IMG/VR virus record: IMGVR_UViG_2529293142_000032
Location: 1-13,878 of that record
Reading direction: 5' to 3' (one strand)
Length of the DNA stretch: 13,878 bases
Source of the DNA: a virus
Lineage: Duplodnaviria > Heunggongvirae > Uroviricota > Caudoviricetes
The notes beneath the pieces are model-generated. The model saw only the letters and a list, made by a program, of their open reading frames with translations, was not told where the DNA came from and did no database searches. The translations under genes were made by a program, and so were the position numbers. Shown piece by piece: positions 8,156 through 8,654 of this stretch. Numbering within the stretch: position 1 is the first letter of the stretch; every line of letters starts with the position of its first letter.

Positions 8156-8291
8156 TTTTTTCTCTCTTGCATCTTACTTCTTGTTGCTTACTGCCTGTGT
8201 GATGACCTGCCTCAGAAGGGCAGGTCATCATCAAAATCACCGGCGTTATTGTCATCAGGTACGCCATGCCCTGCATACTGTTTCGCTCTGT

Positions 8292-8654
8292 TCAGTGCAT
8301 CAGTAGCCTGCCCCTGCTGGCCTTTTTGCCGCCCGGTCGCACAGTTCGGGCACTGATTACGCTGTCTGCGATAACCTGCCAGCCCTGCCGCGTTTCGCCG
8401 TTCTGGCCTGTCCACTGGCTTACCTGCATGTTACCCGCCACGCTCACCAGTTCGCCTTTGTGGTGTCTGGCCAGTGCGTCTGCCTGTCTGCCAAATGCCA
8501 GGACGGATAACCACATCGTCGCCGTTCCGTCATCGGCCTGGCTGCACGGCAGGGGGACCGCCACACTTGCCATCGCCATTTGTGTACCCTTGCTGGTGGT
8601 CTTTAACTGCGGGTCAGCCACCAGCCGCCCGTAAGCCGCTATCTGTGCTGTCAT
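8292..8654 (-). CDS. ssb: Single-stranded DNA-binding protein (SSB-like OB fold), apparently frameshifted; the C-terminal tail is encoded in another frame down to 8212
   Basis: OB-fold-like N-terminus (AAYGRLVADPQLKTTSKGTQMAMASVAV...MWLSVLAFGRQA...). The overlapping ORF 8212..8415 ends in ...GDFDDDLPF, the canonical SSB acidic tail. Confidence 0.7.
   Translation of the reverse strand: MTAQIAAYGRLVADPQLKTTSKGTQMAMASVAVPLPCSQADDGTATMWLSVLAFGRQADALARHHKGELVSVAGNMQVSQWTGQNGETRQGWQVIADSVISARTVRPGGKKASRGRLLMH

Follow-up and report, generated by a model that had tools for sequence, protein, structure and literature searches.

The single-stranded DNA-binding protein (SSB) gene of the virus record IMGVR_UViG_2529293142_000032 (IMG/VR) raises a simple question: has a satellite island of Escherichia coli lost the C-terminal end of its SSB, or is the record of a normal gene one base short? 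The analysis covered positions 1 to 13,878 of this record, and this whole stretch of 13,878 nucleotides is referred to below as the window. An earlier note, made from the letters of the DNA, had described an SSB-like gene whose OB fold and acidic tail are read in different frames meeting at a run of five adenines, and had left three causes open, namely a sequencing error, a real pseudogene and a slippage-prone site. These can now be ranked: a sequencing error comes first, a real frameshift private to this lineage second, and functional or programmed slippage is essentially excluded.

Organization of the split SSB gene

Read with a run of six adenines, the gene occupies positions 8212..8654 on the minus strand and measures 443 nt in the window versus 444 nt (147 amino acids and a stop codon) in its relatives. 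Its first part is a 120-amino acid ORF (8292..8654, minus strand; frame A), in which residues 1–111 are authentic SSB. The last nine residues (ASRGRLLMH) represent out-of-frame read-through up to a premature TGA, and the C-terminal end of the ORF reads ...VRPGGKKASRGRLLMH before that stop. The domain itself is complete: Pfam PF00436 covers residues 5–99 [1.2e-16; 61.1 bits, cut-off 26], while NCBIfam TIGR00621 is matched from model position 7 to 110 of 165 (56.4 bits, cut-off 53.95). SSB chains in the PDB were also matched, down to an E-value of 5e-10.

The remainder of the gene (frame B; 8212..8322, minus strand) is shifted by -1 against the reading frame of the OB fold, and consists of a Gly/Gln-rich linker and the acidic SSB tip, ...GDFDDDLPF, followed by a stop. 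It is open as a 67-amino acid ORF (8212..8415, minus strand) which overlaps the 120-amino acid ORF and ends ...GQQGQATDALNRAKQYAGHGVPDDNNAGDFDDDLPF. The coordinates given in the earlier note for both ORFs, and its reading of the first as a prematurely terminated OB-fold part and of the second as a Gln/Gly-rich linker with an SSB tail, proved correct. The two frames join at an A5 homopolymer on the minus strand (8323..8327; T5 on the plus strand), which is where the one-base shortfall occurs; at this position the relatives possess A6, within GGC AAA AAA GGC, encoding G K K G.

Restoring the sixth adenine yields a protein with the Gly/Gln/Pro-rich flexible linker typical of bacterial SSBs (GGKKGQQGQATDALNRAKQYAGHGVPDDNNAG), and TIGR00621 is then matched end to end (positions 7–165 of 165, 64.5 bits, cut-off 53.95). 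By its domain matches the protein is unambiguously assigned to the bacterial SSB family. The one feature of that family which is out of place in the window is the tip DFDDDLPF (8212..8238), which is out of frame (-1) with the OB fold; the fault amounts to one base and is probably artefactual. The tip of SSB is its recruiter of partner proteins. Nor is the split a chance resemblance, since the pieces plus one A give, with every residue matching, a 147-amino acid protein which exists intact on 112 public contigs.

Immediately upstream is an 81-amino acid gene of unknown function (PHROG 1231; 8651..8896, minus strand). Its stop codon overlaps the SSB start (ATGA), so that the two are translationally coupled, and the SSB ATG is preceded, at a distance of approximately 10 nt, by a GGAG.

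Genetic context of the SSB gene

The genes of the island on the minus strand are, in order, a 152-amino acid gene, an HTH_17 gene, a 394-amino acid protein, a 106-amino acid gene, DUF4222, a D5-type primase/helicase, the 81-amino acid gene, SSB, ProQ/FinO, PerC, several hypotheticals, a second PerC and an IS256-family transposase. The HTH_17 protein (12811..13020, minus strand) is an AlpA-type regulator. The last ca. 85 residues of the adjacent 394-amino acid ORF (11617..12801, minus strand) match the phage "transcriptional repressor" family phrog_6196 [5e-49], and the first ca. 300 residues gave no match. E. coli EC12 has another module, containing Icd-like genes, in place of the segment with this ORF. 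The satellite primase/helicase (9184..11001, minus strand; 605 amino acids from its ATG), with D5_N, DUF5906 and Pox_D5 domains, forms part of the replication module to which SSB belongs. Immediately downstream of SSB is an RNA-chaperone-like protein with a ProQ/FinO domain (7631..8155, minus strand), the gene of which overlaps that of a PerC-family regulator (7362..7676, minus strand). Near the right arm is the second PerC paralogue (1382..1678, minus strand), which shares 45% identity with the first PerC as found in EC12. An intact IS256-family transposase gene (1..1209, minus strand; Pfam Transposase_mut, 9e-120) has inserted into the island's right arm and forms the left end of the window; the same transposase sequence is found at the end of contig L081 (GCA_900016085.1), with 100% identity over 263 nt.

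In loci 99.9% identical to the window a tyrosine integrase (Arm-DNA-bind_3 and Phage_integrase) is located directly upstream of the window's end, and the genes flanking the island are aer, PadR and a SIP-type reductase at one end and a UDG-family gene plus rpoD at the opposite end. With the integrase supplied by those loci, the order integrase, AlpA-type regulator, primase/replicase within ca. 10–15 kb is that of phage-inducible chromosomal islands (PICIs), and as judged by gene content the layout is that of a Gram-negative PICI. No capsid or lysis genes were recognised in the window, and among the structural families of Pfam and PHROGs the sole match in it was a weak one to a small terminase (phrog_57, 6e-7), given by a 136-amino acid ORF (4426..4836, minus strand) which is possibly a packaging-redirection gene of the island. 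The same SSB also occurs in many capsid-encoding relatives, which carry major capsid, head decoration and small terminase genes.

Intact homologs and distribution of the A-run alleles

A megablast search of 5,426 complete E. coli genomes with positions 8150..8720 gave E. coli EC12 as a match of 99.8% identity, 572 bases being aligned to the 571-base query. Over these 571 nt there is a single difference: A6 in EC12 versus A5 in the window. The annotated EC12 product (locus JTC67_RS18665) is a 147-amino acid single-stranded DNA-binding protein (WP_062898228.1) which corresponds to frame A of the window as far as ...GGKK and then to frame B from GQQGQ... to DFDDDLPF. It had been predicted that one base added to the A5 run (T5 at 8323-8327) would give an SSB of about 147 residues, and the A6 copy of EC12 is precisely this fusion. 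The frame B DNA (8212..8322) is 100% identical to that of EC12. The 112 nt beyond the shift show no further change from EC12, as would be expected of an error or of a very recent event.

The near-identical islands (L009-L011 and L075-L087, more than a dozen in number; 99.9% identity) all have A6 and encode the 147-amino acid SSB with its tip in frame; a sister SSB type of 140–141 amino acids ends ...GDNIPF. The comparison of homopolymer lengths in orthologues which had been suggested thus gave one answer, in that the arrangement is fused in all the orthologues examined, and separate ORFs are conserved in none. The conserved SSB tail on which the proposal had been staked is present in the downstream frame of the window, and in frame in the orthologues.

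How widespread is A5? A 45-mer carrying A5 and centred on the run, designed such that each 28-nt seed must span it, gave no matches in the 5,426 complete E. coli genomes. An A6 46-mer of like design was found at 355 places in 327 of the complete genomes; since this control worked, the negative stands. A pattern scan for A5 plus zero to two extra bases recovered 63 contigs (20 metagenome and 43 from viral collections), with A6 in 61/63, A7 in 2/63 and A5 in 0/63. Among all the loci compared, A6 was found in 80 and A7 in four (L026, L049, L090 and L091), and A5 occurred only in a contig of the Logan assembly of SRR057628. With ca. 440 copies checked, the A5 allele is unique to one sequencing sample. 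The exact 120-amino acid product likewise has one record, in the Logan assembly of SRR057628, and neither the 67-amino acid tail ORF nor the 610-amino acid primase ORF has an entry in the protein collection. The A5/A6/A7 pattern was not found in species-representative genomes, a result which is uninformative, these genomes evidently being without the island.

Short queries have to be read with care at longer runs. With megablast queries of 41–47 nt centred on runs of A7 to A9, "No match" is a false negative and not absence, since the A9 query missed even EC12, which has that sequence. The cause is most likely low-complexity masking of runs of at least seven A, leaving no 28-mer seed. An 80-nt query found three complete genomes with A7, overturning the short-query negative for that allele.

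Homopolymer lengths in two assemblies of one lineage

The Logan assembly of SRR057628 (L003) can be aligned to positions 6790..13878 of the window with 0 mismatches over 7.1 kb, and has in common with it the window's private substitution at 7925. The two differ by four indels, all of ±1 nt in runs of 5–8 nt: 13429 (A6 in the window/A7 in L003), 11989 (T6/T5), 9641 (A6/A5) and 6885 (A7/A8). From the lack of mismatches and the confinement of the indels to homopolymers it follows that the window and L003 are the same lineage assembled twice, disagreeing only at homopolymers. Homopolymer-only discordance of this kind is the signature of sequencing that is poor at run lengths. L003 possesses two unique contractions of its own, A5 at 9641 and T5 at 11989. 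At the former, which is A6 in the window and in 26 other loci, its primase (L003 3609..5425) is split into pieces of 455 and 143 amino acids, plainly a case of homopolymer noise in the SRR057628 data. At the latter L003 splits the 394-amino acid ORF.

Comparison with more than ten independent near-identical islands gave the same type of result. Against L078 over 12.7 kb the window shows one substitution and four one-base A-run contractions; against L085 and L087, over 10.5 kb and 8.8 kb, respectively, there are two substitutions and three contractions (8328, 6885 and 6179). These three are unique to the window in this comparison set and all are frameshifting, one breaking SSB and two breaking a 287-amino acid hypothetical gene (6099..6960, minus strand) which is intact in all of the near-identical islands. 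The first of the latter two sites, an A7 run at 6878..6884 (minus strand), is A8 in 16 related loci and A9 in EC12, and the contraction from A8 to A7 shifts the frame near the 5’ end of the gene, about 20 codons in. L003 has the A8 of the relatives here, contradicting the window, and this run is a control site for homopolymer undercalling in the window's assembly. The second, an A6 run at 6173..6178 (minus strand), is A7 in 14 related loci and introduces another frameshift near the 3’ end. The resulting fragments of 220 and 222 amino acids have no record in the protein collections. In EC12, with A9 at the first tract, PGAP takes a nearer ATG in another frame (269 amino acids), so that the A-tract is flanked by alternative start codons belonging to different frames. 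The spread of lengths from A7 to A9 may reflect either noise or true variability of the tract.

In all, about three of roughly 32 runs of at least 6 nt are affected in the window, and the singleton homopolymer lengths at these sites all derive from the data of one lineage and are all contractions. The run at 13423-13428 (minus strand, in the gene at 13420..13878) is of a different kind. A6 specifies the 152-amino acid product and A7 the 238-amino acid protein of many relatives; in the loci compared, some of them duplicates, A6 was found in nine and A7 in 12. L085 and L087 have A6, as does the window, and L003 and EC12 have A7. A miscall was considered for the A6 of the window and rejected, the 152-amino acid product being present in six independent contigs, which makes this a real polymorphism.

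Origin of the frameshift

We regard the A5 as probably an undercall of A6. The window would then contain an ordinary, intact-type SSB gene within the replication module of an E. coli PICI (primase, 81-amino acid protein, SSB, ProQ/FinO, PerC), in which A6 was recorded as A5, an undercall of run length typical of flow-based or other homopolymer-sensitive sequencing. On paper the missing base would leave linker and tip (DFDDDLPF) in the -1 frame, and the living strain most likely has A6 and would produce a normal 147-amino acid protein, with an OB fold predicted to bind single-stranded DNA and an acidic tip predicted to recruit host replication and repair partners. Contraction at a rate of about 3/32 runs, if real, would break hundreds of genes genome-wide, and most of these contractions therefore cannot be real; the run at 8323-8327 is itself most likely among the miscalls. 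By rough estimate, the miscall rate per run in this assembly is a few percent, and real indels, on a branch with only 1–2 substitutions per 12 kb, would be expected in well below 1% of runs. The early accession SRR057628 fits data of the pyrosequencing era, the platform being judged here from the accession number; a literature search for SRR057628 found no paper.

Several observations count against an undercall. Both assemblies of the lineage agree on A5, though they are discordant at other noisy sites, and with independent errors a shared miscall would be uncommon; the two probably share reads. The run is also short, and consensus miscalls are rarer at six than at seven or eight. Lastly, genuine frameshift alleles exist at this same run and other decayed SSB alleles are common, so that real loss does happen.

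A real one-base deletion by replication slippage in A6, private to this lineage and resulting in a fresh SSB pseudogene or a tail-less 120-amino acid allele, is accordingly a serious, if less probable, possibility. The concordance of the two assemblies just mentioned speaks for it, as does the reality, in several independent assemblies, of the A-run polymorphism at 13423-13428. So too does the inherited +1 allele (A7) of the same run. This allele, belonging to the sister SSB type, is found in three complete E. coli genomes in which PGAP labels the gene "frameshifted" (AR_0077, AM456_RS04705; A36, AOY89_RS21350; and OY754371), as well as in a 365-kb human-gut metagenome contig of Illumina type and an isolate contig, the last two being identical to each other over 6 kb. 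Its product would end ...GGKKRPAGAGH. With five independent datasets the A7 allele is real, in contrast to A5, which is known from one sample. Other truncated alleles recur, a 99-amino acid form on 21 contigs and a 117-amino acid form on five, and the satellite SSB has been lost repeatedly. Against a private deletion are the confinement of A5 to that single sample among all the copies surveyed, the presence in the same assembly of two further unique frameshifting A-run contractions with almost no substitutions, the contradiction of one of these two by L003, and the lack of secondary decay downstream. In weighing the two explanations we discounted the gap between miscall and indel rates for the concordance of the assemblies; the result is a rough estimate and not a computed posterior.

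If A5 were real, the island would encode an OB-fold-only SSB lacking both linker and acidic tip, which could bind single-stranded DNA and could not recruit partners; the recruitment of partner proteins through the tip is established SSB biology (see also PMC7293020). Its loss would probably be tolerated, since the host ssb is present and the accessory satellite copy decays repeatedly in other lineages. This would be one more case of the repeated decay of accessory SSBs in E. coli phage satellites.

With A5, the tail is out of frame by -1 and could be rescued by a -1 ribosomal shift at GGC_AAA_AAG or by the insertion of one A by RNA polymerase, setting a ratio of tail-less to full-length SSB; we consider such a function very improbable, even though C_AAA_AAG is one base from the classical dnaX heptamer and a -1 shift (tRNA-Lys, from AAG to AAA) would give exactly the wild-type ...GGKKGQQ... 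protein, because the first position of the heptamer is C, making P-site re-pairing poor and departing from X_XXY_YYZ (zero frame GGC_AAA_AAG), because no stimulatory element is present either upstream (no GGAGG-like, Shine-Dalgarno-like motif in the 20 nt before the run) or downstream (68 nt folding at -17.7 kcal/mol versus a shuffle mean of -19.4, z=+0.66, no better than shuffles), and because the split is not conserved, A5 occurring in no copy examined beyond L003, which is of the same lineage. Appreciable transcriptional slippage requires a longer run than A5. Programmed frameshifting was rejected on the fold and on the lack of conservation. Hardly more credible is a real A5 with a leaky C_AAA_AAG, giving mostly tail-less, OB-fold-only SSB and little full-length protein. 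Were this the case, there would be a natural partner-blind SSB, which could coat single-stranded DNA during helper-phage infection and interfere with or tune the replication of host, phage or satellite.

An undercall thus remains our preferred explanation, and the feature is ordinary either way: a known satellite SSB, one base short in a homopolymer. Its biological import is small, for this is a RefSeq-named satellite protein, and homopolymer frameshifts are a familiar artefact as well as a familiar route to pseudogenes. Its practical import lies in quality control. Three unique A-run contractions break two genes, and read support is needed before apparent pseudogenes in this assembly are interpreted.

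Comparison with known systems

The closest known counterpart of the split gene is that for WP_062898228.1, from Escherichia islands of the PICI/cfPICI type. Apart from one missing A the coding DNA is the same, and the EC12 neighbours are those of the window, with the 81-amino acid gene (ATGA overlap) and D5-type primase upstream and ProQ/FinO and PerC downstream. The difference is that the A5 of the window splits the protein into a 120-amino acid OB-fold ORF and a tail ORF in the -1 frame. The A7 pseudogenes involve the same gene family and the same homopolymer, and have similarly lost linker and tip by frameshift, but in the +1 rather than the -1 direction and in a 140/141-amino acid sub-lineage whose tip reads ...GDNIPF and in which capsid genes come next.

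At the programmed -1 site of dnaX, the heptamer A_AAA_AAG is preceded by a Shine-Dalgarno-like element and followed by a hairpin. The window resembles it in its zero-frame Lys-Lys codons AAA_AAG, from which slippage by -1 would give back the complete protein, and differs in having C first, in being without a stimulatory element, and in that the arrangement is conserved in no relative.

With the Gram-negative PICIs EcCICFT073, EcCIEDL933 and EcCIMP1 (PMC11773190) the island shares an integrase, an AlpA-type HTH_17 regulator, a D5-type primase, PerC genes and a size of roughly 13–15 kb; PerC-family regulators are common accessory genes in Gram-negative PICIs (PMC11773190). Its differences are a distinct right arm and the IS256-family insertion.

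As to the chromosomal SSB of E. coli (PDB 1EQQ/1EYG), the satellite protein shares with it the OB fold (PF00436/TIGR00621), a disordered linker rich in Gly and Gln, and an acidic-hydrophobic tip, which reads DFDDDLPF as opposed to DFDDDIPF. The two are only distantly related (27.5 bits, 2.4e-5 to 1eqq_A). The satellite SSB is a 147-amino acid protein with a linker of ca. 30 residues, carried on a mobile satellite, versus 178 amino acids for the chromosomal protein and, unlike the latter, is presumably non-essential.
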